The notes under the pieces are model-generated. The model worked only from the letters and a program-made list of their open reading frames with translations. It had not been told where the DNA came from and did no database searches. This document shows, piece after piece, positions 1,333-35,071 of a stretch of DNA of 64,000 nt (position 1 is its first letter; each line of letters begins with the position of its first letter). Source of the stretch: Gammaproteobacteria bacterium (GTDB lineage Bacteria; Pseudomonadota; Gammaproteobacteria; RBG-16-57-12); assembly GCA_022712945.1 (NCBI GenBank), contig JAFLJP010000104.1:76447-140446 (forward strand), read 5' to 3'. Made by a program: the position numbers and the translations under genes.

Positions 1333-3141
1333 TTGTACCAATTGGCTATTAGGAATATAATCCAGAGAGGGATTTTCCGCGATGTTATGGATCTATATAT
1401 GGCTAGGCAATATTGGTGGTTGGCGGCTCTATTACCACTTTTTTTAATCGGTTGCCCGGCCCAATCACCAGAAAGTGAATCCGCCGCGGGTGATGATGAG
1501 AGTATGGTCTTCATGGAGACTTTTTCCGGCACTGGACTGCGCACAGCCGCCACTCTGGGCTCCACCTCCCTCGATACCCTGCGCATGGCTCACCAGGACT
1601 TTGCACTGGCTGACTATCGTCGCCTCGCCTTCAAGGAGAGCAATATCATCACCTCTGTGGTGGATACACAGTTACTGTTGAGCATGGTTTCGTTGGGAGC
1701 GGCAGGCACCACCTTGAGTGCAGTGAACAACGCCAGCGGGTTTGTTCTTGATGGTGAACTCCCCCATGCGTTGGTTAACGAGTGGGATCAGCACCTTGCC
1801 GACCAGGCGGGCATCCAGGTGCAGCGCTATTTGTGGGGTCAGGAGCGTTACCCGTTTGCCGAAGAGTATCTCGACAGTCAGGTCAGTTTTTATGGACCGG
1901 AGATGATGGCCTTGGATTTCCAAACAGCTGCTACGAACTCAGCAATTCAGATTAATGGAACCCTGCCTAACCTACCACAGAGCGATTTTATCGATCACCG
2001 CTCTCGTCTGGTGATAGCCCAAAGCCTGGAAGCCAGCCGGACTTGGTCGGCCGAGCTCGACCAGGAGAGCTTCAGTGGACGGTTTGCTGTTGGTGATGGC
2101 CAGCGGCAGCTGGATATGATGCGTTTTCAGGGGTTGTTGAGTATCACCGAGAGTGAAGAATACCGCGCAGTGGAGATTCCACTTGCTGGCCAAGAGCTGG
2201 CCTTGCTTATCATAGAGCCCAAAGTTTCGCTTGCTGCAGTACAGAATAACCTTGATCAGGCGGGCTTTCAAAATATATTGGAGCAACTACGGCTACAGCA
2301 ATCGGAAGTGGTGGTGCCTCTGTTTGATATAAGGGTTGAGTTTCGTGATGATGATGTGGCCGACTTGGGGGTGGCGCTGGTAGAGTCTGATGACGCTGTG
2401 GAGTCCGGCATTGCCCCGGGTTCGAATGTAATCATCATCGATACTGAGATAATGGAAGAGGGAGAGTCCCTGCCGGCCATGGAAGAAGCCTCCGATAGTG
2501 AAGCCAACTTCTATTCAGTGAATGAGGCGGGCTATCTTTATCTCAATGGCCTCAGGCAGTGGGTTGCGGTTGCGGTTACAACGGAGGGTATCTCGACTGT
2601 GGCGGCCAGCGCAGTCGCACATCAAGCAAAGCATAGTGAGCCGGGCTGGTTGTTTGATGGAGGAGAGAGTGACAATCGGCCTGGCCTTGTCACAACTACT
2701 CAGGGTTCTAGCTCCATCCCCTGCTACTATCCGCCTGATCAGCAGCCATTTTTGTTTGTACTCTACGCCAAAACCAGTGGTGTCCTGCTTGCTACGGGCC
2801 ATGTGAGCGAGCCGAAAGGGGAGGAGGTAGCGGCCGATTGGATGGACGATCTGGGTTGGCCTGGGTGTGGTGAGAGCCCACCGGTTAAAATTTATCAACA
2901 CGCTGGCGCTGTGCAGTGTGAATCCAATGGTGTCGATCCTTATACCATGAGGGATGAGCTACTCGGCGCTGGCATCAATGTATTGGATTGGGGCCGGGGA
3001 AGTAACGGGTCTGTCTATATCAGCCTGTGTGGTGTGACAACGGGGGATATCAACTACTTTACTATTCGTGAGCAGGATATTGAGCTGGCCCAACGATTAG
3101 GATTTTCACTTTTATCTGAGCTGGAAAACCCGACTTTATAG
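1333..3141 (+). CDS. Lipoprotein of the serpin (serine protease inhibitor) family with a C-terminal extension of about 110 aa.
   Basis: Lipobox LFLIGC. Serpin-like blocks are NIITSVVDTQLLLSMVSLGAAGTTLSAV, FYGPEMMALDFQ, ALLIIEP, VVVPLFDIRVEFRDDDVADLGVAL, a hinge-like VTTEGISTVAASAVA, and the C-terminal PFLFVLYAKTSGVLLATGHV. The true start may be downstream of 1333. Confidence 0.55.
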   Translation: MYQLAIRNIIQRGIFRDVMDLYMARQYWWLAALLPLFLIGCPAQSPESESAAGDDESMVFMETFSGTGLRTAATLGSTSLDTLRMAHQDFALADYRRLAFKESNIITSVVDTQLLLSMVSLGAAGTTLSAVNNASGFVLDGELPHALVNEWDQHLADQAGIQVQRYLWGQERYPFAEEYLDSQVSFYGPEMMALDFQTAATNSAIQINGTLPNLPQSDFIDHRSRLVIAQSLEASRTWSAELDQESFSGRFAVGDGQRQLDMMRFQGLLSITESEEYRAVEIPLAGQELALLIIEPKVSLAAVQNNLDQAGFQNILEQLRLQQSEVVVPLFDIRVEFRDDDVADLGVALVESDDAVESGIAPGSNVIIIDTEIMEEGESLPAMEEASDSEANFYSVNEAGYLYLNGLRQWVAVAVTTEGISTVAASAVAHQAKHSEPGWLFDGGESDNRPGLVTTTQGSSSIPCYYPPDQQPFLFVLYAKTSGVLLATGHVSEPKGEEVAADWMDDLGWPGCGESPPVKIYQHAGAVQCESNGVDPYTMRDELLGAGINVLDWGRGSNGSVYISLCGVTTGDINYFTIREQDIELAQRLGFSLLSELENPTL

Positions 3142-6940: not shown

Positions 6941-7777
6941 TTACTCCCTACTCTGCTGCAACAGTAATTTCAGCTCGTTGATATCCTGTTTCAAATCCTT
7001 AATCTCTTCACTCAATTGATGGTGTTCCGTTTGTACCACAGTGGTTATCGCCTCTTTATCCTGTTCATCTTTACCCGCTTGCACACTTTGCATCGCATCA
7101 ATAATAATCGCAATAAACAGATTCAGCATGGTGAAAGTGGCAATTAGAATAAAGGGGATGAAAAATGCCCACGCATAAGTGTGGGTCTCCATCACCGGCC
7201 TGACAATGCCCATGGACCAGCTCTCCAGTGTCATCACCTGAAACAGGGTGTACATTGAACTACCCAGTGAGCCAAACCACTCAGGATAGTCACTACCAAA
7301 CAGCTCGGTGGACATCACTGAAAAGACATAAAAGATGATCGACATCAAACCCGCTACTGAAGCGATACCGGGAATGGCACTCAACAGCGCCTCAGCAACC
7401 ACTCGCAACTGAGGGACTAGTGATATAAGGCGCAGTACTCGTAAAACACGCAACACCCGCAGCACCTCAAGTGGGCCACTGGTGGGAATTAAGGCGATGG
7501 CTACAATCAGGAAATCAAAAACATTCCATGCACTGCTAAAAAAACGCCCCCTAAAAGCAAATAACTTCACACTGATTTCAATCACAAAAATAGTCAGCAC
7601 CACATTATCCACCAAGCGAAGCCAATAACCGTACTGTGCCTCCAGAGCATCTGAGGTCGCGATGCCAAGGGTAATTGCATTTAATATAATCAGTGTAATA
7701 ATCAGATATTGAATCGGTTTCGACTCTACCCACATACCGGCGCGGGTACGCAAAGATTGATCGCTTTTCATGCTCAC
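6941..7777 (-). CDS. Bacterial voltage-gated sodium channel of the NaChBac/NavBac family (single six-transmembrane domain).
   Basis: S4 voltage sensor LRVLRVLRVLRLISL. Pore and selectivity filter FQVMTLESWSM (NaChBac has TLESWAS). S6 is followed by a C-terminal coiled coil (EEIKDLKQDINELKLLLQQS). Confidence 0.8.
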   Translation of the reverse strand: MSMKSDQSLRTRAGMWVESKPIQYLIITLIILNAITLGIATSDALEAQYGYWLRLVDNVVLTIFVIEISVKLFAFRGRFFSSAWNVFDFLIVAIALIPTSGPLEVLRVLRVLRVLRLISLVPQLRVVAEALLSAIPGIASVAGLMSIIFYVFSVMSTELFGSDYPEWFGSLGSSMYTLFQVMTLESWSMGIVRPVMETHTYAWAFFIPFILIATFTMLNLFIAIIIDAMQSVQAGKDEQDKEAITTVVQTEHHQLSEEIKDLKQDINELKLLLQQSRE

Positions 7778-19201: not shown

Positions 19202-21475
19202 TTATTCTGGCAAGTGAGTATCGTAATCCAACTGGAGTGTATAACGGCCTGGTGCGGCTTCAATCCGCAGGAAATCCTGGGCGTGGGGTGTCTGTAGGGT
19301 TAGCTCATCACTGAGCAACTGCAGCGCCTCCCAGTTAATCACCGCCAGCTCATCAAACGCCGCCATTCCTCCACCAAACTCGGTCGGTGACTTGCGCAAA
19401 AAAAGCCTTAAGGCTCGGGGGTTCAAGAAGGGTTGATCCTGGTATTGTGGCAAATCTTCCGGCATCGTCAAGTCACTCAACAGCGGCTGCCAGGAGAAGT
19501 CGCCACCTGCATGATAATAGGCGGGCTCTTCGCCAAATGTCTCTTCCCCCAAACTGGCATAATAACGTACGGTAATGCGCAGTTCGCCGCTATTTTCACC
19601 ACGAACATAACCAAACAGACTTAAATTTTTATTCGGTCTGTTTTCCGCATCACCGGTAACACGAATACGATTAGGGAATGCACTCACCGTGTCACCGCTA
19701 TTCTGAGCATCGCGCACCATACAGAGTCCCTGCACCCCTTGGTAAGCACCACCCATACAGGCAAAACGGCTACTCCCCGACACATCCCAGCGGGCCAGCT
19801 CAAATGATTGATCATCAATGTCGTAATCTTCAAAATCACCGTAGAGCAATATATCCCGCCCCACGGCAATATTAAGCCCTGAACTGACCGAGGAGACCCG
19901 AGCCAAAGAGGCTTCGGATGGAATAAGGTGACGCAGATCAACAACTCCCACGCCACGCTCACCAATAGTAATAGTGTGGCTTATCTGTTCCGTTTGTTTG
20001 GTATAGAGCTCACCCTCAGCCAAAATCCATGCGCTGTGCTGATAAGGGAACGAAACAGCACCGCCACGGGAAAACTCCGCCAGATGTCGAATAAAGCGGT
20101 TGGCAAAATCCCCACTGATTCGCCGTGGGCGATAACCCTCAAGATAGATCGGGATTCCCTGTGCCCGAACAATCTGTTGATCACGCACATCCACCTGGGC
20201 CATCAGCCCTAACATGGTGTCATGGCGATCTTGATCAAACAGGAAATTACCCAGCCCTTCAAATATCAGCGCACCATCATGATAACCAAAACCCTGAGCA
20301 ACATGGGGGTGGTGTGATATGACCAAGTCTGCCCCGGCTTCCGCAGCCATGGTCATGCGATTATAGGCATAATTGCTCGGATCCCAAGTATACTCAGTGC
20401 CGCTATGCAACTGTGCAATCACAAAGTTTCCTTCAGCCTGTGCAGTGGTAATGGTGGCGGTCACCCGCACGTCATCATTCAAGTCCGCCGCCCCGCCCTG
20501 GGGCGTACAGGGGTCATAATCACCCCCTATACAGTCAGTTGCCACATAGAGATCAGCGTGATGAAAACCCGATATTGAAGTGGCTGAAATCAGTGAAATA
20601 GGTGTCCCTTTAATCTCAGTTTCGTAAGGCATGAAGGCCTCTTCAGGCGTTGCCCCGGCCCCTGAATACTGGAAACCATGCTGTGTCAGGTAGTCCAGGG
20701 TATCCTGCAAACCAGCAGCTAAATAATCATAGACGTGGTTATTCCCCAGGCTAACATAGTCGATACCGGCTTCACGCAAGGCGGGCAGCGACTCGGGCAG
20801 TGTAAAGTAGACGAAATTTTTAGTAGCGTGAGGTGTCTGTGGATTGAGCGTTACCGGGCTCTCAAAATTAACCACCGGAAAATCGGCCTGCACCAGGGTT
20901 GAACGGATATAGTCGAGAGCCTGGCGACTGCCTGGAAGTGGGTCACTGCTGCGAATCAGCGCCTGTGGATTATCGGCTGGAATCTCATTTGTTGGCGTCA
21001 GTTCTAAAGGGTCGAGAAAACGGCGTGCAAAAGAGAGATCACCAGCAAATAGAAAACGTGCTTCACTACTGTTTGTCGCCGTCAAAGTGAATGGTGCCAA
21101 TTGCAGCGACTGTTGGGCCATCACAATCTGCAGGTGCAGTGGCTGTTGAAATTGGCGAAACTGCGCCACATCCACGGTCAATAGCGTATTTTTTCTGGCT
21201 AGATTTTGCAGGCTGAAACGACCCTGTTGATCGGTGTAACTCTGCACCCCAAGCGCACTAACCAAGGCACCCTCAATCGCGTTACCTGATTCATCCACCA
21301 CTTCGCCATCAAGATCCACGGTGCTGTTTTGATAATGATCCCGCAGTGACTGATCCTGTTGAAAAAAGTCACTGGCCTTTGCTGCATCATCATTTTTCCC
21401 GCACCCTGGCAGGCCCCATAATAAGGAGAGCATCAAGATGGCCAGGCAGACTCTGTAACCCGTAACTGTATTCAA
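19202..21475 (-). CDS. Lipoprotein with a carboxypeptidase-regulatory-like N-terminus and a CapA/PGA_cap-type metallophosphatase domain.
   Basis: Lipobox LPGCGK. DYVSLGNNHVYDY and IAQLHSGTEY match CapA (poly-gamma-glutamate synthesis) family motifs. Confidence 0.6.
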   Translation of the reverse strand: MNTVTGYRVCLAILMLSLLWGLPGCGKNDDAAKASDFFQQDQSLRDHYQNSTVDLDGEVVDESGNAIEGALVSALGVQSYTDQQGRFSLQNLARKNTLLTVDVAQFRQFQQPLHLQIVMAQQSLQLAPFTLTATNSSEARFLFAGDLSFARRFLDPLELTPTNEIPADNPQALIRSSDPLPGSRQALDYIRSTLVQADFPVVNFESPVTLNPQTPHATKNFVYFTLPESLPALREAGIDYVSLGNNHVYDYLAAGLQDTLDYLTQHGFQYSGAGATPEEAFMPYETEIKGTPISLISATSISGFHHADLYVATDCIGGDYDPCTPQGGAADLNDDVRVTATITTAQAEGNFVIAQLHSGTEYTWDPSNYAYNRMTMAAEAGADLVISHHPHVAQGFGYHDGALIFEGLGNFLFDQDRHDTMLGLMAQVDVRDQQIVRAQGIPIYLEGYRPRRISGDFANRFIRHLAEFSRGGAVSFPYQHSAWILAEGELYTKQTEQISHTITIGERGVGVVDLRHLIPSEASLARVSSVSSGLNIAVGRDILLYGDFEDYDIDDQSFELARWDVSGSSRFACMGGAYQGVQGLCMVRDAQNSGDTVSAFPNRIRVTGDAENRPNKNLSLFGYVRGENSGELRITVRYYASLGEETFGEEPAYYHAGGDFSWQPLLSDLTMPEDLPQYQDQPFLNPRALRLFLRKSPTEFGGGMAAFDELAVINWEALQLLSDELTLQTPHAQDFLRIEAAPGRYTLQLDYDTHLPE

Positions 21476-21749
21476 CCTGAAATCCTCAAGTGGATGAAGT
21501 GAAGGTCTATTTCTAGAGGTGCTCTTAAAATGGCGGTATAACGGCCTAGGAGCTTGTCCGGGAATAGAGGTCGTAGCGAGAGAGTGTGGTTTTTAGTTCA
21601 TTTTTTCGACAATTTGAGGCGAATGGTTGTTCCCTTTAACGAAAATTGGCGGGAAAATGAGCAAAAAACACGCTTTCGCAGTAGACCTATCTATTCTCGG
21701 ACAGGCTCCTAGCATATCAAACCAAGGCGTTTTCTCCACCTGAAAATAT

Positions 21750-22106
21750 CTACGGTGTTCGCGTGACATGCTCTAACAGCTCTTGCTCCATTCGCTTGCG
21801 TATCGCTATTTTATTAACCACTTTTAACCCGTAGCGATTGGCCAGTGCGCTCCAGTCGTGGTCTGAAAGTGAGAGTGAGAGTCTGGGACGTTTTTTCTTT
21901 GCCAGTTCAAGCCCGAAAATTGAGCGCAGTTGGTCTGAGGGGCTTAGGCCGTTTTGACACGCTTCAATGCGAAAGTGGTCATCTGCATCACCCAGTTCAA
22001 AAATAACTTGGGTCGATTTTTTTTGAGTAGTGGCTTTTTTTAGTGCTTCAATAGCGTTGTTTGAGTTGTCCCAGCGGGACGGCTTTTTGCTCATGTGCTT
22101 GGCCAT
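21750..22106 (-). CDS. Small basic hypothetical protein.
   Basis: 118-aa ORF that overlaps the 3' end of the upstream YjfK-like gene by 16 nt. No recognised motif. Confidence 0.35.
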   Translation of the reverse strand: MAKHMSKKPSRWDNSNNAIEALKKATTQKKSTQVIFELGDADDHFRIEACQNGLSPSDQLRSIFGLELAKKKRPRLSLSLSDHDWSALANRYGLKVVNKIAIRKRMEQELLEHVTRTP

Positions 22107-22750
22107 AGCTCTTCTATATCGTTTGCTTCAAACAGCCGGGTGACCATCACATCAGTATCGCCATCGTACACTTCAATCTCAATATAATATTTTTCGTCAT
22201 CACTGATGAGTGAGTAGTAGTCCAACTCATCCGCACCATCAGCAGAGCTTGAGAGCGGCTGTTGGCGGTAATCTCCTTTATGAAAATAGCCGCGTACTGA
22301 TTTTGCATTTTGGGTATAAGCATCCGCACTCCAGTGGCTTAACCATGACCACTGCGGATCAAAATCGTCCGGATTACCGGTGCGTTGAAGGCGCACTGGC
22401 TCGTCGGCATCAAAGATTGCTGAAAATTGATCAAGGTTAAATAACTGTTCTACCACGGTACGCGGTAGTTTTATTGAGAGGCGCAGTTCAACTTCATCAT
22501 CGGATTCATCAACTGTCATAAACAGGGTCTGCTTGTCACTGCCCCTGAGTACAAACTCAGTCTCATTGCCCGATTTGAAGTCGTAAGTGTTCACCTCGTC
22601 CACGGTAAAACTGTTACCGGCCAGCGGGGTGGGGGTGAAGAGTTTAAACTTCACGATATCACCCGCCGCAAGCTCCCGGGGGTGGGAGAGATGGCGTACG
22701 TTATCCGCCTCTTTTTTACCACCAAATAGTGATTTTAAAAAACCTGCCAT
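22091..22750 (-). CDS. YjfK-like (DUF2491-type) protein. The assignment rests on size and gene order.
   Basis: 219 aa, the same length as E. coli YjfK. Lies immediately downstream of a PspA-family gene, as in yjfIJK. Confidence 0.35.
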   Translation of the reverse strand: MAGFLKSLFGGKKEADNVRHLSHPRELAAGDIVKFKLFTPTPLAGNSFTVDEVNTYDFKSGNETEFVLRGSDKQTLFMTVDESDDEVELRLSIKLPRTVVEQLFNLDQFSAIFDADEPVRLQRTGNPDDFDPQWSWLSHWSADAYTQNAKSVRGYFHKGDYRQQPLSSSADGADELDYYSLISDDEKYYIEIEVYDGDTDVMVTRLFEANDIEELWPST

Positions 22751-22765
22751 CGTTCCTACTCCCCG

Positions 22766-23467
22766 TTAGCCTTTGTTAGCAGCGCCTTGCTTTAACTTAG
22801 CAAGAATATCACTGGCGCTGTTTTTGTTACCACCAATACCGGCCTGAGCCAACTTGTCATCTAGTGAGCCTGAACCCATCTCATTTTCCAGTACTTCGGC
22901 AGCATCCATTTGGTCGAAGGTGTGCTGTTGACGCGCCTTGATGCGATCCAGTGATGATTTAGCATCCAGCAATTTATTAGCACCGGCATGTTGAGTATTG
23001 GTGATCGATTGTGTCGCTTTCTGCACGCTCTCGGTAGTCTTGACCATTTTAAGCTCACGCTCATGCTCGCGGATGGTGGTTTCGCTCTGTTTGATCAGCG
23101 CCTTTAGCTTGATCACTTGTGCAGCGGTCTGTGCCAGCACCTGCTCTTGAACAGCCAGTTCTGTTTGCAGTTCACCCACTTTTTCAGCACAGCTGAGTGC
23201 CAGCTCTTCTTCATTTTTTTCCATGGCAGAGAGTGCCGAGGCTTCATATTTGGCAATATCATCCTGAAGCTGCTTAACATCACGCGCCCCTTTGGTCTGG
23301 CTAGCCATGATGTTAGTTAGATCACGCTTGGCTTTGCCGAGGTTTTTCTTGGCATCTTCAATCTCTTGGGTATAGATGCGCGTTGCGTTGGCATCCATCA
23401 CCGCTTCACCCGCTTCACGTGCACCGCCGCGCAGAGCGGTTAATAGTTTTCCGAAAATACTCGACAT
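22766..23467 (-). CDS. PspA/IM30-family protein (YjfJ-like).
   Basis: 233-aa coiled-coil protein. The start MSSIFGKLLTALRGGAREAGEAVMDANATRIYTQEIEDAKKNL is typical of PspA/IM30. Confidence 0.7.
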   Translation of the reverse strand: MSSIFGKLLTALRGGAREAGEAVMDANATRIYTQEIEDAKKNLGKAKRDLTNIMASQTKGARDVKQLQDDIAKYEASALSAMEKNEEELALSCAEKVGELQTELAVQEQVLAQTAAQVIKLKALIKQSETTIREHERELKMVKTTESVQKATQSITNTQHAGANKLLDAKSSLDRIKARQQHTFDQMDAAEVLENEMGSGSLDDKLAQAGIGGNKNSASDILAKLKQGAANKG

Positions 23468-23487
23468 AATTATGATCCTTTTAACAG

Positions 23488-23901
23488 TTAATTCAGGTAG
23501 TCACTTAATGCTTCAATCGCATCAAGGGAGTTGTCGCTTAAAGTGGTAATTTCCAGTGCCACATCTTCAGCGCTGGAGTTGAGTGACATGGCACCAAATA
23601 CGGCATACCTGTCATCCATCTTTGCAAACGATGAGAGCGGCATTGGAATATTCAGGCTCAGCATGCTTTCAAACATTGCCATGCGGCTCTCTGGTGTCAC
23701 CTGTGATTCATCAAACAGGCTACAAATGCAGAGCAGTTGGTCATCGGCCATGGTGATAAAGATAGGTAGCTCATCACGATCTTCGACAGTGACCTTGGCA
23801 ACCTGCTCATCAATAATCTCAAAACTCAGATCCAAACCACCACGTTTCTCATCATCGAGAGTGGTTACTTGGGTCATCAGTTCCTTTAGATTTTTATTCA
23901 T
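23488..23901 (-). CDS. YjfI-like (DUF2170-type) small acidic protein.
   Basis: 137 aa. Position immediately upstream of the PspA-like gene matches E. coli yjfI. Confidence 0.4.
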   Translation of the reverse strand: MNKNLKELMTQVTTLDDEKRGGLDLSFEIIDEQVAKVTVEDRDELPIFITMADDQLLCICSLFDESQVTPESRMAMFESMLSLNIPMPLSSFAKMDDRYAVFGAMSLNSSAEDVALEITTLSDNSLDAIEALSDYLN

Positions 23902-23991
23902 GGGTTGTTTCCTTCTGGTTAACGGGGCTTAAGTTAGTTGTTATGACATATTATGTCAAGACATATTATGACGAAAAGCAATATATCCAAA

Positions 23992-25728
23992 TTATTGATC
24001 ATCATTATATTCTGCCCACCCCTTGCGATGGTACTCAATAATCTGGTTACTGTTGATTCTGTTTACCTTGATCTCGGGTTCAATATCGTAGAAACCCTGA
24101 TTAAAGGCAAATGCACCGAGCATCAGCTCTCTGGTCATCCAGCCATCATTGACCGGCAGTGATGAATACTCTTCAATCCGCTGCTTAGCCGATTTACCCG
24201 CCTTGGTGGCGATGGTCCAACCCCACTCACCAAACGAGGGCACGTTGGCGTGGTACTGTTCAACCCGCTGAAAACCGGCATGTTTGACCGTTTTTTTGAT
24301 TGAGATAAACGCCTCTTTGGCATGATAGGGGGAGGTGGATTGAATGGCGATGGCACCATCACCCGAGAGCAGTGCGTGCAGCTTGGCATAAAAACGCGAT
24401 GAGTAGAGTTTGTTTAAATCTGGATGGCTGGGGTCGGGTAGGTCAACAATGATAGTATCGAACATTTCTCCTTGAGCCAGTAGCTGATCAACGCTACCGT
24501 AGGCATCACCCAGATGAACCTCAACACGGCTATCTTGCAGGGCATATTCATTTAGCTCCAGTAGCGGGCGATTGACCACTTCACCCTTCTGCATCACCGG
24601 TTCACTAAAAAACTGGATAATTTGCGGATCAAGCTCTAGTAGAACAACCGACTTCGGATTCCAGCGCAACACATCACGCAGTGCCAGCCCATCGCCACCG
24701 CCCACAATCAAGATGCGCTCCCGGCGGTTTGAAGCAAGCATGGCAGGATAGGTGAGCATGGCGTGGTAGATCTGCTCATCCAGACTGGAAAACTGAGTAT
24801 GGCCGTTGATGTAGAGATACCAGACCGGTGCTTTGGCGGGGTCAATAATGCGCTTGGTAATCACCACTTTTTGGTAGGGGGTGACCATGCGGGCAACCAC
24901 TTGATCTTTGTAGAGCATATCTTCCAGTGCCAGCTCCCAACTAGGGCCTTTGATGGCGATGGTGGCAACAATGGAGGCAACAATCAGGTGGCCGATTAGC
25001 AGCAATGCACTAAAACGGATATGTTTTCGGTAGCAGAAGTAGAACAGCAGCCCGGCAAGCAAATTAGCACTGGCGGCAATCACGGCGGCGATGCTGCTCT
25101 CCAGAGTGAGCAGAAACAGCACAAAAATCAACGCACCGATACCGGCACCAATATAATCTGCACCATAGATAGTGCCGGTATTATTCTCCAAGTGCATGCC
25201 GTAAACCGACTCCCGAACCTTGGCAATAAGCGGAATCTCGGCACCGATCAACATACCTAAAATAAAGGCCATCAGGTACGGCATATTTTTCGCCAGCCAT
25301 TGCAGGGTATTGATTGCACCACCGGAAAGGTTGATGCCGTGCAGGCCGTAGGTTTCGGCAATAATCGAGGGGAGCACATAGCTAAAGGCGATTAAACCGG
25401 CGATAAACAGAATCGAACTGACACCGATCAAACCGATCAGTAGCTCCAACCAAGCAAAGCTGCTAAAGGGGCACTTTAAACGAGCCGCTGCAAATGCCCC
25501 CAGCCCCATGGAGGCGATCATCACGGTGAAGACCCCAAAAATGGCAACCTCAGTGGCACCCAATACCCGCGCGGCATAATGGGAGAGTAAAAACTCATAG
25601 ATCATGCCGCAACCAGCCAACACTGCCATGATGCCAATCAGCACCACATCATGCATCAGCAAGCGGCGGTTGCTACGCCAGCGGCTGACAATATTCCAGC
25701 CTTTCGGGGTATCGATTGGCTCCGCCAT
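23992..25728 (-). CDS. Polyamine aminopropyltransferase (spermidine-synthase-like) fused to an N-terminal multi-transmembrane domain.
   Basis: About 7 transmembrane helices in the N-terminal half. C-terminal ERILIVGGGDGLALRDVLRW...VEVHLGDAY...DTIIVDLPDP matches the spermidine synthase fold. Confidence 0.75.
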   Translation of the reverse strand: MAEPIDTPKGWNIVSRWRSNRRLLMHDVVLIGIMAVLAGCGMIYEFLLSHYAARVLGATEVAIFGVFTVMIASMGLGAFAAARLKCPFSSFAWLELLIGLIGVSSILFIAGLIAFSYVLPSIIAETYGLHGINLSGGAINTLQWLAKNMPYLMAFILGMLIGAEIPLIAKVRESVYGMHLENNTGTIYGADYIGAGIGALIFVLFLLTLESSIAAVIAASANLLAGLLFYFCYRKHIRFSALLLIGHLIVASIVATIAIKGPSWELALEDMLYKDQVVARMVTPYQKVVITKRIIDPAKAPVWYLYINGHTQFSSLDEQIYHAMLTYPAMLASNRRERILIVGGGDGLALRDVLRWNPKSVVLLELDPQIIQFFSEPVMQKGEVVNRPLLELNEYALQDSRVEVHLGDAYGSVDQLLAQGEMFDTIIVDLPDPSHPDLNKLYSSRFYAKLHALLSGDGAIAIQSTSPYHAKEAFISIKKTVKHAGFQRVEQYHANVPSFGEWGWTIATKAGKSAKQRIEEYSSLPVNDGWMTRELMLGAFAFNQGFYDIEPEIKVNRINSNQIIEYHRKGWAEYNDDQ

Positions 25729-25734
25729 GGAGGA

Positions 25735-26643
25735 TTAGGCAGACGGCGCGATGAGTGCCGCGAGCAGTAAACCATAAATAATATAGATCGCCGCTTCAAT
25801 TAGCCCAATACCCACGTTGCCCTGTTTATCCACCTCTTCCACCACATTGATGCCGCGCAGAATAATATGCCGCGAGAGAATCGCCAATATGGAGAGCAAA
25901 ATAACAAAAACTACCGAAGCGGCACCCCACAGCAATATCGCCATGAAGGGTGAGCTATCACTAAAGGCGATGGTGCCGGAAGCGGCGGTGACAGTGAGTG
26001 CGGCGCCAATTTTATGCCCCAAGTAACGAATGCTCAGCGCCTTATTGCCCTGAGCCAATGCCGCTTGCAGACATTCCCCATTATGACGTTTGGCATAAAC
26101 CGCGTGACGGTAACGGGTCACCAGCACCAGCAGCAGTTGTGAAATCACAAAACCGACCAGAACAATTGCCAGCCCGTAAAGTGCTTCGGTATCTACCCAA
26201 ACCATCACCGCACGAATAATAATTGCCGTGGCGATCATATTACCGGCATCAATAATCCCCACCGCCAGATTGCCATCCATAATCTGTTGCTGTACCGAGA
26301 TATTACGCAGGGTTATTTTATCGAAAAAGAAGCGGGTAGAGGCCATCAGCAGAATACCGACAATACCGTAGGCCGTCACAATACCCAGCTCGTATAGCAG
26401 TGAGGGTGACGCATCCCCGGAGACAACCCCGGTCATCATAATGCCAAGCCCCAACAACGCACCGGCAAATGAGATGCCGAAGGCGAAGTTATCTTTTTCA
26501 GACAACTCTTTAATTGAACTGACATTGGCGATAATGCCCATTTTTATGCCCACCAGCGTCAGCATCAAGGTAACAATGATAAAGTCGATGAGCAGAATCA
26601 GCGTCTGATATTGATCAAAGGCGATTAATTCAGATAGGTTCAT
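25735..26643 (-). CDS. Integral membrane protein with three DUF350-like repeats (YjfL-like).
   Basis: Repeated motif (D/Q)GN-x-A/G...G-x-LLGLGI before transmembrane helices: EKDNFAFGISFAGALLGLGIMM, MDGNLAVGIIDAGNMIATAIII, KQGNVGIGLIEAAIYIIYGLL. Confidence 0.5.
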   Translation of the reverse strand: MNLSELIAFDQYQTLILLIDFIIVTLMLTLVGIKMGIIANVSSIKELSEKDNFAFGISFAGALLGLGIMMTGVVSGDASPSLLYELGIVTAYGIVGILLMASTRFFFDKITLRNISVQQQIMDGNLAVGIIDAGNMIATAIIIRAVMVWVDTEALYGLAIVLVGFVISQLLLVLVTRYRHAVYAKRHNGECLQAALAQGNKALSIRYLGHKIGAALTVTAASGTIAFSDSSPFMAILLWGAASVVFVILLSILAILSRHIILRGINVVEEVDKQGNVGIGLIEAAIYIIYGLLLAALIAPSA

Positions 26644-26674
26644 GTTCTATTTCTCCATAAATTCATATCGGGAC

Positions 26675-27679
26675 TCATTTGCCACCACCACCAAAACTTC
26701 TGGAGCTGCTGCTGCCACGGAAACTGCCGCCGTATGAACTGCTTTTTGATCCTGAGCCGTAAGAGCTGTTTTTGGAACCCGAACCATAAGAACTGCTTTT
26801 GCTAGAACCGCCATACTGCCCCATTGATTTGGATGCCACATAACCGGAGGTGTTACGCGCCTTAACACCACTGCCCTTGGCATAGGTAGAACCTTTGCGG
26901 CTTGATGATTGATAGCTCTTGGTATTTGATTTTTGATAGCTTGAAGCGCGCTGGCGGCTCTTTTGTGAACCGTATTGGTGAACCCCGCGATCCTGATAGT
27001 GGCTATAGGGGCGGTGACGGTCCCAGTCGTTATAAAGAATCGAGCGTCCACCACCGGTAAGATTTGAGAACATGCTATACATGCCATACCACGCCCAAAA
27101 AGAGGTACCACCACTGCTCTGGTTCCACTGACCATACGCCGGGTTACCCACTAATTGGCTGCCTGCGCCATAATCACTGGCATCATTAACCAGTGCCTCT
27201 TCTGCTTTGCTCATACTGCTGACACGCGGTAGAGTACCGTTTGATATATCGGCCAACGCATTGACCGTATCGGTGAGCGCACTGTTATAGGCCGGTATTG
27301 CCATCGCCCTTAATAGCGATTCAGACTCCACCAGCAATGTTTTTGGCTCGCTGTGCACCTGCTGCATTTTTTTGATCTCATCCAGCCGGGTTTGCAGGTG
27401 TTTGAATAGCGCGCCTTCTGTGGTGGCATCTTTTGCCATAATATCAGCAATAGCGGCCATTTTCGGCTGCTCTCTTTTTATACTGCGAGCATAGCGCCCA
27501 ACCAGTGCTGCATTGCGTACTTCCCCATTGTCAAGGGCGCTGCGCAGTGCATCCAGACGTTGATCAGCCTGAGTGATTCGCTCAATTGCAGCGGCACGGT
27601 TAGGGTCTTCACAGCCGCTTAACAGCAGTAAAACAAGCATGGCGCAAATAACCCGCCAATTATATAAGGTGTATTTCAC
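26675..27679 (-). CDS. Lipoprotein with a Gly/Ser/Tyr-rich low-complexity C-terminus.
   Basis: Lipobox LLLLSGCE. The C-terminal 90 aa are (S/G/Y/K)-rich repeats of the form SSYGSGSK. Overlaps the upstream gene by 4 nt. Confidence 0.5.
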   Translation of the reverse strand: MKYTLYNWRVICAMLVLLLLSGCEDPNRAAAIERITQADQRLDALRSALDNGEVRNAALVGRYARSIKREQPKMAAIADIMAKDATTEGALFKHLQTRLDEIKKMQQVHSEPKTLLVESESLLRAMAIPAYNSALTDTVNALADISNGTLPRVSSMSKAEEALVNDASDYGAGSQLVGNPAYGQWNQSSGGTSFWAWYGMYSMFSNLTGGGRSILYNDWDRHRPYSHYQDRGVHQYGSQKSRQRASSYQKSNTKSYQSSSRKGSTYAKGSGVKARNTSGYVASKSMGQYGGSSKSSSYGSGSKNSSYGSGSKSSSYGGSFRGSSSSRSFGGGGK

Positions 27680-28428
27680 ACCGTTTCTCCTTTAGGTTCC
27701 CGCGTTAAATCGAGGCGTTGCAATGATTTCCAGACAAACCACACGCAGGCCAGTGCAAACAGCTCCCAGAGCGCGACCCATATTAATTCAGGTATAAATG
27801 TAAGCTGAGACAGTGTTGCACCATCGCCCAGATTGCGACCATCAATTAACCAAAGCGGTGATTTTATCGCATCCAACAATACATAGCAGCCGATAAATTT
27901 CAGCAGAATGTGAACCGCCTTTGGATTCCAACTGCTCTTTATGGGCAATAGGCATACCGCTGTAATGACGAGCAGGATAAGAATAGTGACTAAATCTCTG
28001 CCCCAAAACAGCAACGCACCCAAGGTGATGCTAGCCAGTGTTATCGCCAAAGCCTTTTTTTGATAAAGCGAAGCCGATGAGACCGATAAAACCAGCAACG
28101 CCCCGAACAGAGCAGCGCCCAAATAACCCGCTAAAGTGACAACAAAGCGAATGCCTCCCGAAGTATAACAAAGGCCGGAACCGCTTAAGTGAATTTGAAT
28201 TGAGCTCACACTGCCGCCGGTAATCATGGCGGCTAAGCCGTGGCTGATCTCGTGGAAAAAGGTTTGAATCCAGGTGAATGGCCAGTTAAGTATCGGTATA
28301 AACGAGACCACGATGGCAGCGGCCATGATGATGATAAATTGGTGTTGCAGCTTCATTGCCGTACCTTCAAGAGAGGAAGTGACACCGGCCACAAGCCCAA
28401 AATGTTTGTCATCGGAGGCTGGCACCAT
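27676..28428 (-). CDS. M50B-like membrane metallopeptidase (HExxH in a transmembrane helix).
   Basis: Polytopic. HEISHGLAAMITGG sits within a hydrophobic segment. A second LDA...IDG region resembles the site-2-protease family. Confidence 0.5.
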   Translation of the reverse strand: MVPASDDKHFGLVAGVTSSLEGTAMKLQHQFIIIMAAAIVVSFIPILNWPFTWIQTFFHEISHGLAAMITGGSVSSIQIHLSGSGLCYTSGGIRFVVTLAGYLGAALFGALLVLSVSSASLYQKKALAITLASITLGALLFWGRDLVTILILLVITAVCLLPIKSSWNPKAVHILLKFIGCYVLLDAIKSPLWLIDGRNLGDGATLSQLTFIPELIWVALWELFALACVWFVWKSLQRLDLTREPKGETV

Positions 28429-28521
28429 AAACGAATTTCACACAAATCTCCACACGCCTATTCGGGCCAATAAAGAAACTTCGAATAAAAAATGGCTCAA
28501 TACACTTGCACAAAAACAAAG

Positions 28522-28557
28522 CATGTATATAATTACATGCATGTTTATTTACACATG
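28522..28557 (+). promoter_or_regulatory. Two tandem palindromic putative LexA (SOS) boxes of the form cATGT-N8-ACATg, upstream of lexA.
   Basis: catgtatataattacatg (28522-28539) and catgtttatttacacatg (28540-28557). Both are palindromes matching E. coli CTGT-N8-ACAG with a symmetrical C-to-A change. They lie 13-48 bp upstream of the lexA start. Confidence 0.5.
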
Positions 28558-28569
28558 TGCGTAAAAATA

Positions 28570-30963: not shown

Positions 30964-31040
30964 TGGTAGTCGCGAGTGGATTCGAACCACCGACCCCCAC
31001 CATGTCAAGGTGGTGCTCTAACCAACTGAGCTACGCGACT
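30964..31040 (-). tRNA. tRNA-Val (anticodon GAC).
   Basis: Reverse complement AGTCGCGTAGCTCAGTTGGTTAGAGCACCACCTTGACATGGTGGGGGTCGGTGGTTCGAATCCACTCGCGACTACCA. 7-bp acceptor stem. Anticodon loop TTGACAT. CCA is encoded. Confidence 0.9.
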
Positions 31041-34578: not shown

Positions 34579-34654
34579 TCCCTGATAACTCAGTTGGTAG
34601 AGTAGCGGACTGTTAATCCGTTTGTCGCTGGTTCGAGCCCAGCTCAGGGAGCCA
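34579..34654 (+). tRNA. tRNA-Asn (GTT), copy 1.
   Basis: TCCCTGATAACTCAGTTGGTAGAGTAGCGGACTGTTAATCCGT...GCCA. Anticodon loop CTGTTAA. Confidence 0.9.
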
Positions 34655-34663
34655 TATTCAAAA

Positions 34664-34689
34664 CCCTGGGATAAAACCAGGGTTTTTTT
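34664..34689 (+). terminator. Rho-independent terminator after tRNA-Asn copy 1.
   Basis: ccctgggataaaaccaggg hairpin followed by a T7 tract. Confidence 0.7.
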
Positions 34690-34694
34690 AGTTT

Positions 34695-34857
34695 AACCCT
34701 AATCCCCAGATAGAAACACGCATGTTACGCAAGTCATTGATCCCACAGAAAAATAAAAAATAGCCGCCAAACCAACGGGTGCGACTCATATTTTTAATTT
34801 CACTGTGAAACCAATATCTTACATACCATCTCGCATTTCTATCTGGGGATTAGGGTT
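34695..34857. repeat. 163-bp segment bounded by perfect 22-bp inverted repeats, inserted in the first tRNA-Asn spacer.
   Basis: aaccctaatccccagatagaaa at 34695-34716 and tttctatctggggattagggtt at 34836-34857. It is absent from the second spacer (34949-34995), which is otherwise highly similar. Confidence 0.6.
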
Positions 34858-34872
34858 TAAAAAAATCACTAT

Positions 34873-34948
34873 TCCCTGATAACTCAGTTGGTAGAGTAGC
34901 GGACTGTTAATCCGTTTGTCGCTGGTTCGAGCCCAGCTCAGGGAGCCA
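34873..34948 (+). tRNA. tRNA-Asn (GTT), copy 2.
   Basis: Identical 76-nt sequence to copy 1. Confidence 0.9.
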
Positions 34949-34957
34949 TATTCAAAA

Positions 34958-34985
34958 CCTTGGGATAAAACCAGGGTTTTTTGGT
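34958..34985 (+). terminator. Rho-independent terminator after tRNA-Asn copy 2.
   Basis: ccttgggataaaaccaggg hairpin followed by a T-tract. Confidence 0.65.
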
Positions 34986-34995
34986 TTAACCCTAA

Positions 34996-35071
34996 TCCCT
35001 GATAACTCAGTTGGTAGAGTAGCGGACTGTTAATCCGTTTGTCGCTGGTTCGAGCCCAGCTCAGGGAGCCA
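34996..35071 (+). tRNA. tRNA-Asn (GTT), copy 3.
   Basis: Identical 76-nt sequence to copies 1 and 2. Confidence 0.9.

Follow-up and report, generated by a model that had tools for sequence, protein, structure and literature searches.

A conserved PspA-family gene cluster with a membrane-fused aminopropyltransferase and a predicted operator-repressor pair in a gammaproteobacterial contig

Proteins of the PspA/IM30/Vipp1 family are bacterial ESCRT-III-like membrane-repair proteins. In one class of operons, a PspA paralogue is found again and again together with polyamine-type chemistry at the membrane, and here we examine a gene cluster of this kind, at positions 19,202 to 28,428 of a 64,000-nucleotide stretch (hereafter, the window) of contig JAFLJP010000104.1 from an uncultured member of the Gammaproteobacteria (metagenome-assembled genome GCA_022712945.1) that is related to contigs of hydrothermal-vent metagenomes.

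In the comparative-genomics survey of Ravi et al. 2024 (mSystems 9:e00847-23, PMC11237479), where DUF2170 is given a CesT/Tir-type chaperone fold, the second major group of CesT/Tir(DUF2170)-PspA operons (example proteins AAN56744-AAN56747) encodes a seven-transmembrane (7TM) domain fused to a spermine/spermidine-synthase-like enzyme, an 8TM YjfL/DUF350 protein, a novel lipoprotein carrying a 'Ctha_1186 domain', a DUF4178 protein and sometimes a terminal ribbon-helix-helix (RHH) protein. Their third group, distinct from the second, is the E. coli yjf type, with an ATP-grasp ligase, DUF1190 and DUF2491. A link between PspA and polyamines was already proposed in that survey, and it was restated by Wallart et al. 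2024 (PMC10948618) in their discussion of the P. aeruginosa bac cluster.

The window locus is a member of the second group. It has the DUF2170-PspA dyad, the 7TM-enzyme fusion, the 8TM DUF350 protein, a lipoprotein, a DUF4178-like protein and a terminal RHH-like protein, and it is directly syntenic with a locus of Shewanella fidelis (L013), whose lipoprotein is orthologous to that of the window. It differs in having an M50B protease gene added at its 5' end and in lacking, within the window, the K+ channel and S-adenosylmethionine decarboxylase (AdoMetDC) genes of most relatives. Neither the operon class nor the PspA-polyamine link is new: the original prediction for this DNA, made from the sequence alone, had pointed to a conserved connection between IM30-type proteins and polyamine chemistry, which is real but had already been put forward. 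What is new here is the predicted operator/repressor pair, the wider gene set (M50B, K+ channel, AdoMetDC) and the predicted orientation of the enzyme, and the main text of Ravi et al. (PMC11237479) makes no mention of M50, an operator or enzyme orientation. The window adds no new class, but the conserved gene set, the operator and its likely repressor, the predicted enzyme orientation and the existence of cultivable hosts make the system more testable.

We read the locus, with moderate confidence, as an envelope-maintenance module of this published class that is composed of a membrane/periplasm arm and a cytoplasmic arm. The former would comprise the 7TM-aminopropyltransferase, a protein with two DUF350 repeats (2xDUF350), a basic-tailed lipoprotein and the M50B protease, to which most other genomes would add a K+ channel and an AdoMetDC that supplies the aminopropyl donor. 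The latter would comprise a tandem-RHH repressor, a DUF4178-like protein and a YjfJ-type PspA with its CesT-like DUF2170 partner, the PspA serving to bind and stabilise the inner membrane. The nine minus-strand open reading frames (ORFs) that had been predicted were all recovered at the same coordinates and, in order of transcription and together with a predicted regulatory region, the features are:

27676-28428, minus strand: Peptidase M50B-like intramembrane metalloprotease (PF13398, E 1.3e-38)
26675-27679, minus strand: lipoprotein with a lipobox, a helical N-terminal domain, an aromatic/glycine motif and a basic tail, without a Pfam family
25735-26643, minus strand: eight-TM 2xDUF350 (YjfL-like) membrane protein (PF03994, E 3.2e-36)
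23992-25728, minus strand: 7TM-aminopropyltransferase fusion of 578 residues (Spermine_synth PF01564, E 2.5e-34)
23931-23972, minus strand: predicted internal promoter and operator (palindrome GACATAWTATGTC plus hexamers)
23488-23901, minus strand: DUF2170/YjfI-like protein (PF09938, E 2.5e-32)
22766-23467, minus strand: PspA/IM30 protein of the YjfJ subfamily (PF04012, E 3e-37, residues 3-227)
22091-22750, minus strand: DUF4178-like protein (PF13785, 24.8 bits against a cut-off of 25)
21750-22094, minus strand: small basic protein of 114 residues with two tandem RHH-like units (AlphaFold2 model, weak Pfam matches)
19202-21475, minus strand: CapA-like gene product (PGA_cap, E 2.5e-50; CarboxypepD_reg domain)

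Examination of gene neighbourhoods revealed how much of this arrangement is shared. The comparison covered six genome loci, four loci reached through DUF4178 homologues and 80 metagenome loci anchored on the fusion-specific 7TM domain, and 25 loci were fully evaluable, with flanks that reach at least 3.5 kb before the enzyme gene and at least 8 kb after it. A seven-gene core (lipoprotein, DUF350, enzyme, DUF2170, PspA, DUF4178 and small gene) occurs together in 24 of the 25, in two gene orders, a synteny that is far beyond chance and that is kept within the chromosomes of many genera. A K+ channel with a TVGYG filter is present in 22 of these loci, and the M50B-like HExxH protease, correctly placed in the cluster by the original prediction, recurs in 15; of the 78 loci with enough upstream sequence, 26 have an AdoMet_dc gene immediately before that of the enzyme. 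In the window type, the order is (M50B)-lipoprotein-DUF350-enzyme and then DUF2170-PspA-DUF4178-RHH-(K+ channel), with variable members in parentheses; in the commoner type, it is (AdoMetDC)-enzyme and then DUF2170-PspA-DUF4178-RHH-K+ channel-lipoprotein-DUF350-M50B. The protease gene is found also in a third, divergent arrangement (L014). The same operon is carried by the cultivable hosts Shewanella, Pseudoalteromonas, Colwellia and Thalassotalea. In the closest relatives (L012, 11049-14625, and L017; enzyme 86-88% identical), the operon runs on into YqiJ, Band_7/flotillin and K+-channel genes, an array that merges the first and second CesT/Tir-PspA contexts that Ravi et al. describe separately.

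The original prediction described a closely spaced nine-gene cluster resembling E. coli yjfIJKLMC, and on that view all nine genes, from M50B to CapA, would make up a single operon corresponding directly to the one in E. coli. Most of the genes are indeed close together on a single strand, with genuine stop/start overlaps (GTGA at 27676-27679; ATGA at 22091-22094, where independent gene callers on identical metagenome contigs place the start of the small ORF at 22094, giving 114 residues) and with only 20 bp between the adjacent DUF2170 and PspA genes; no convincing candidate for an intrinsic terminator lies between the RHH gene and the CapA-like gene; and the DUF2170, PspA and DUF350 proteins are homologous to YjfI, YjfJ and YjfL. 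But the packing is broken by a 90-bp gap (23902-23991) between the enzyme and DUF2170 genes, in which a conserved promoter and operator divide the cluster, and by a 274-bp gap between the RHH gene and the CapA-like gene, which is absent from all 25 evaluable loci. Moreover, DUF2491, DUF1190 and the ATP-grasp enzyme are not present, and the two operon types fall into distinct groups according to Ravi et al. (PMC11237479), such that a single nine-gene counterpart of the yjf operon is very improbable. Because it is missing from every evaluable relative and stands behind the longer gap, the CapA-like gene is an unrelated downstream neighbour, and the system consists of eight genes, M50B through RHH; the CapA-type metallophosphatase domain had been recognised correctly, but its gene does not belong to the cluster. 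That gene accompanies the cluster only in L016, a contig 97% identical to the window and from essentially the same organism. Its product, of 757 residues, is a predicted lipoprotein with LPGC as the lipobox; the C-terminal 340 residues or so received no assignment.

The resemblance to yjfIJKLMC is therefore partial: it extends to YjfI, YjfJ and YjfL, and each system also includes an enzyme related to polyamines and a lipoprotein whose tail is rich in Gly and Ser, but it fails for YjfK and YjfM. In place of the DUF2491 (YjfK), DUF1190 (YjfM), 4TM single-DUF350 and ATP-grasp (YjfC) proteins of E. coli, the window encodes a DUF4178-like protein, a lipoprotein unrelated to YjfM, a protein with two DUF350 repeats and an aminopropyltransferase; the RHH regulator and M50B come in addition. 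In profile searches of the flanking ORFs, DUF2170, DUF350 and PF13398 were matched, whereas DUF2491 and DUF1190 were not. YjfC is annotated in databases as a peptide-spermidine ligase, its physiological substrate not being established, and none of the cluster ORFs has a YjfC-type ATP-grasp glutathionylspermidine-synthase-like domain or similarity to YjfC; as had been foreseen, a different polyamine-type enzyme, the 7TM-fused aminopropyltransferase, stands in its place. In E. coli, the paralogous yjfIJKL genes are co-expressed as a single iModulon, and strains evolved under heat express it more strongly.

The cytoplasmic proteins are related to the Yjf proteins to varying degrees. The window PspA is a YjfJ-type protein, as predicted, since it aligns to E. 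coli YjfJ with 32% identity (E 1.5e-28) and to classical E. coli PspA at only E 0.14. Similarly, the DUF2170 protein proved to be YjfI-like (E 7e-13 to YjfI); it also matches PDB entry 8q8o ('DUF2170 family protein', E 1.5e-7), which we take to be the crystal structure of P. aeruginosa BacA. The third protein, which had been called YjfK-like, has a marginal score for DUF4178, although orthologues P0002, P0004 and P0005 carry a precomputed PF13785 assignment. It lacks a signal peptide and has a conserved N-terminal motif, MxGFxKxLFG...R.L.HP..L..GD. Membership in DUF2491 was considered and rejected, there being no match to that family even at E 10; both this protein and YjfK have 219 residues, and only the first 60 or so align (hhalign probability 72%), such that an N-terminal module is all that they have in common.

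Two other systems share the core of the cytoplasmic arm. The classical Psp system (pspF-pspABCDE) has in common with the window an IM30/PspA-family core protein, but regulation in the window apparently proceeds through an RHH repressor and a sigma-70-like promoter, and no homologue of PspB, PspC or PspF and no sigma-54 activator was found among the cluster genes and the other window ORFs scanned against Pfam. The bacA-F cluster of P. aeruginosa has the DUF2170-PspA dyad (BacA and BacB, respectively) but differs in having no spermidine-synthase-like gene and a sigma-54-type promoter (Wallart et al. 2024, PMC10948618). A sigma-54 promoter, as in pspA and bacA, was sought and rejected for the window: no site resembling TGGCAC-N5-TTGCW is present in the gaps 28357-28569 and 23902-23991, and the total count of sigma-54-like sites in the window is below chance.

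The gap upstream of the DUF2170 gene contains two copies of the 13-bp palindrome GACATAWTATGTC, at 23960-23972 (one mismatch) and 23945-23957 (exact), so that positions 23945-23972 read GTCATAATATGTC-TT-GACATAATATGTC. A -35 hexamer, TTGACA (23954-23959), overlaps the exact copy, and 17 nt downstream of this hexamer stands TAACTT (23931-23936), assigned by eye as the candidate -10 hexamer. The corresponding gap carries the palindrome in loci of Sphingomonadales, Shewanella, Pseudoalteromonas and Ectothiorhodospiraceae and in many metagenomes. Most often there are two or three copies, at spacings of 15, 18 or about 30-34 bp; one of them overlaps TTGACA, with a plausible -10 element (again by eye) 16-18 nt downstream. 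Allowing at most one mismatch within 200 nt upstream of the DUF2170 gene, sites were detected in 47 of 48 distinct RHH-positive loci, 43 of which have at least two, and the lone evaluable RHH-negative locus (L003) has none. These patterns indicate that an internal sigma-70-like promoter with an operator splits the cluster into two putative transcription units. Because the presence of the palindrome tracks that of the RHH gene and one copy overlaps the -35 hexamer, it is highly probable that the small protein is an autorepressor of the DUF2170-PspA-DUF4178-RHH unit; it would bind GACATAWTATGTC and shut down the internal promoter, from which transcription is predicted to start near position 23924. 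The conserved operator and its likely repressor provide a handle for induction studies.

In L026, the single exception among the 48 loci, the DUF2170 gene is preceded by a symmetric variant, TACATATTATGTA, in three copies, and the RHH protein departs from the usual residues in the two predicted beta-strand regions (V30E, E33M, R69G, P70R and S77K in window numbering). These changes may represent covariation of DNA-binding specificity, for which one example is only suggestive. Extra operator copies occur upstream of the lipoprotein gene in Shewanella fidelis (L013, 4770-4782) and, in L032, between the M50B and flotillin genes, preceding the latter, such that in some genomes the regulon may reach beyond the PspA sub-operon.

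The tentative assignment of the small protein to the RHH superfamily draws on several results. The AlphaFold2 model, built from a 60-sequence alignment (mean predicted local distance difference test score, pLDDT, 75), contains two successive strand-helix-helix units (E28-31/H37-47/H52-60, then E73-76/H78-88/H95-112), both of which align to CopG in the correct register (E ~0.002). Across 60 family members the most frequent Pfam matches, all of them weak, are to NikA-like (11), RHH_1 (9), RHH_5 and RHH_9; the window protein itself matches no Pfam or NCBIfam family, and some databases name its homologues 'Ribbon-helix-helix protein, CopG'. Neither Foldseek with the model nor a profile search of solved structures returned a significant match. 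The non-significant Foldseek list includes 9f0x_E, an F-plasmid relaxosome entry that we take to be TraY, and 4hv0_D (AvtR), both of which we believe to be tandem-RHH proteins.

At the centre of the membrane arm is the enzyme. The predicted fusion of seven TM helices to a spermidine-synthase-like domain is borne out both by the Spermine_synth match and by the AlphaFold2 model (pLDDT 88.8), in which there are exactly seven TM helices and a SpeE-fold catalytic domain directly after TM7. The protein scores 566 bits (cut-off 472) against the NCBIfam equivalog NF002956/PRK03612 (polyamine aminopropyltransferase). The catalytic domain is a complete aminopropyltransferase fold, with Foldseek TM-scores (normalised to target) of 0.72-0.80 to solved enzymes, among them Pyrobaculum SpeE, Thermus triamine/agmatine aminopropyltransferase, E. 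coli SpeE and thermospermine synthase; searches with the whole model matched this domain only, and none matched the 7TM domain. The motifs GGGDG, E-L-D, G-D-A and D-L-P-D-P are invariant across 60 homologues, whereas the canonical acidic residue of the Q-x-D/E motif is replaced, the family having Q-S-T-S-P. The intact fold, the invariant motifs and the frequent AdoMetDC neighbour support the view that the enzyme is a genuine transferase dependent on decarboxylated S-adenosylmethionine (dcAdoMet), and its acceptor would not simply be cytoplasmic putrescine. 'Spermidine synthase' is probably a misnomer for the fusion. Li et al. 2019 (Biochem J 476:2579), a paper cited by Ravi et al., reportedly found that fusions of membrane proteins to spermidine-synthase-like domains, clustered with AdoMetDC and DUF350, do not make spermidine and do not complement an speE deletion, and that their hosts lack spermidine; they are said to have proposed aminopropylation of a substrate other than putrescine. 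Those fusions may be of the same PRK03612 7TM family; the window differs in having no adjacent AdoMetDC gene.

The distribution of charges in the membrane domain points to an unexpected topology. Across 60 homologues, the number of Lys and Arg residues averages 10.1 in the N-tail and loops 2-3, 4-5 and 6-7, as against 2.5 in loops 1-2, 3-4 and 5-6; the bias holds in 60 of 60 sequences even when the N-tail is disregarded, and relatives only 29% identical have the same pattern. Because the model has seven TM helices, the positive-inside rule would place the N-terminus in the cytoplasm and, rather probably, the catalytic domain in the periplasm. The TM cores contain four invariant acidic residues (E45, E95, E164 and D191), a pattern that would fit a conduit carrying a cationic donor or product. 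The predicted periplasmic orientation is surprising and can be checked by simple fusion experiments.

An alternative is that the enzyme is an ordinary cytoplasm-facing synthase of spermidine or another free polyamine, with the 7TM domain serving as an anchor or exporting the polyamine to the surface, and with PspA and its partners responding to polyamine levels. Surface spermidine made by the P. aeruginosa PA4773-PA4775 proteins offers an analogy. All of the catalytic motifs are intact and the fold matches that of E. coli SpeE, NCBIfam names the enzyme a polyamine aminopropyltransferase at the equivalog level, the adjacent AdoMetDC is cytoplasmic, and the acidic TM core would suit polyamine export; in addition, 'monitors polyamine concentration' is one of the options listed by Ravi et al. 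(PMC11237479). However, the positive-inside bias combined with seven TM helices puts the catalytic domain outside in all 60 sequences and in the divergent subfamily, the best structural and sequence matches are to enzymes of broad specificity or with long substrates, and the acidic residue of the Q-x-D/E motif has been replaced, and we regard a cytoplasmic synthase as possible though rather unlikely.

In the reading that we favour, the catalytic domain would face the periplasm, the acidic TM core would pass the cationic donor or product, an envelope component would become aminopropylated or polyaminated, and PspA would safeguard the inner membrane during this reaction or during the stress that triggers it. 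A more speculative extension, which we hold to be improbable as a whole, is that cytoplasmic dcAdoMet, produced by the AdoMetDC often encoded nearby, would reach a periplasmic enzyme through the acidic seven-helix conduit, and that this enzyme would aminopropylate an envelope macromolecule rather than a free diamine. The most obvious candidate acceptor would be the co-encoded lipoprotein; a lipid or peptidoglycan amine is also possible. Diatom silaffin peptides carry aminopropyl chains on lysine, and the Ser/Lys/Arg/Gly/Tyr-rich tail of the lipoprotein resembles them. If true, this would be the first extracytoplasmic dcAdoMet-dependent modification system, and in its function it would parallel the peptide-spermidine ligase YjfC and the tail of YjfM in E. 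coli; PspA would protect the membrane traversed by the conduit.

The candidate acceptor belongs to a small family, with 302 representatives (50% clusters) in an exhaustive search. Its lipobox is conserved, and Asp never occupies position +2; the aromatic/glycine motif GNPxYGxW...SFWxWYGMY, further on, is strongly conserved, and the tail, rich in Ser, Arg, Lys and Gly, has a basic end (...GGGGK). Although the C-terminus is GK in 50 of 50 distinct orthologues from the loci, only 120 of the best 150 of the 302 representatives end in GK, ten end in RR and a few in other x-Lys dipeptides, such that what is conserved in the family is a basic C-terminus that is not strictly Lys. We had considered the terminal Lys as an obligatory aminopropyl acceptor or as an Lpp-like link to peptidoglycan, and have downgraded both to speculation. 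The lipoprotein matches no Pfam or NCBIfam family; homology to YjfM is rejected, because DUF1190 was matched by none of 40 family members and hhalign gave YjfM a probability of 0.5%. The aromatic/glycine motif (residues 175-201) weakly matches the Pfam EAGR_box in 17 of the 40 (best E 4e-4). In a divergent form of the operon (L014, 12015-12874; L015, 11869-12748), the position of the lipoprotein is taken by a 209-216-residue TM protein and a 77-78-residue protein that has one TM helix, a Gly/Tyr-rich tail and the C-terminus ...SGK.

Several considerations weigh against the module as we have drawn it. The orientation of the enzyme has as its basis only the positive-inside rule and a predicted number of TM helices. 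AdoMetDC is cytoplasmic, and the origin of dcAdoMet therefore conflicts with a periplasmic catalytic domain; we know of no periplasmic dcAdoMet-dependent enzyme. The ten Arg-Arg termini among the 150 lipoprotein representatives weaken the case for a terminal-Lys acceptor. With regard to the unity of the two arms, the window operator precedes the PspA sub-operon and not the enzyme genes, so that co-regulation is not apparent; no AdoMetDC gene and no K+ channel of the linked type lies anywhere in the 64-kb window; and the enzyme gene is occasionally solitary among housekeeping genes, as in the well-flanked locus L040. Furthermore, the sampled loci are not phylogenetically independent, and a literature search found no experimental study of any member of the operon class, cultured hosts included; among the papers searched, none but the survey of Ravi et al. 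mentions DUF4178.

An Ion_trans gene elsewhere in the window (6941-7777, minus strand) was considered as the 'missing' K+ channel and rejected, because its filter is TLESW, of the sodium-channel type, rather than TVGYG. The 278-residue product, whose filter is as in NaChBac-type bacterial voltage-gated sodium channels, is unrelated to the operon-linked K+ channels.

The DUF350 protein had been described as a triple repeat and as YjfL-like: the repeat is two-fold, its halves aligning at E 4e-6 and Pfam giving two stretches, and the family assignment holds, with weak similarity to E. coli YjfL itself (E 2e-3). In the M50B protein, the motifs HExxH (H59, E60, H63) and D196...D202 are at least 95% conserved in 27 orthologues. 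Its true start is probably Met25 (position 28356; 226 residues), because the 24-codon N-terminal extension of the 250-residue ORF is broken in L016. Directly before M50B, that contig has about 190 nt that the window lacks; this insertion contains long inverted repeats (CTGTCTAGGCA...TGCCTAGACAG), interrupts the extension and may be a small mobile element. No regulatory motif common to the upstream regions of M50B in window-type loci was found. Within the divergent lexA/M50B intergenic region, a palindrome, GCATGTATATAATTACATGC, with an SOS-box-like TGT-N8-ACA core, lies at 28521-28540, 30-49 bp upstream of lexA (start 28570); it could put the M50B-lipoprotein-DUF350-enzyme unit near SOS control in this organism, lexA being adjacent only in the window and L016.

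The PspA family name and one PADLOC match of the enzyme domain to mad2 might suggest another reading, in which the cluster is a defence island against phages, or a mobile one, and its 'phage shock' protein is incidental. No PADLOC match was obtained for the other eight proteins, and that of the enzyme is confined to its generic methyltransferase-fold domain; G+C content shows nothing unusual along the window, housekeeping genes (lexA, uvrB and gyrB among them) flank the cluster, and synteny is maintained within the chromosomes of many genera. We give this explanation almost no credence.

Two further features of the window lie outside the cluster. A 602-residue ORF at 1333-3141 (plus strand) contains a domain of the serpin family (E 2e-29), rarely encountered in bacteria. 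Transfer RNA genes are present at 34579-35071 (plus strand), where three for tRNA-Asn(GTT) stand in tandem, and at 30964-31040 (minus strand), where there is one for tRNA-Val(GAC).

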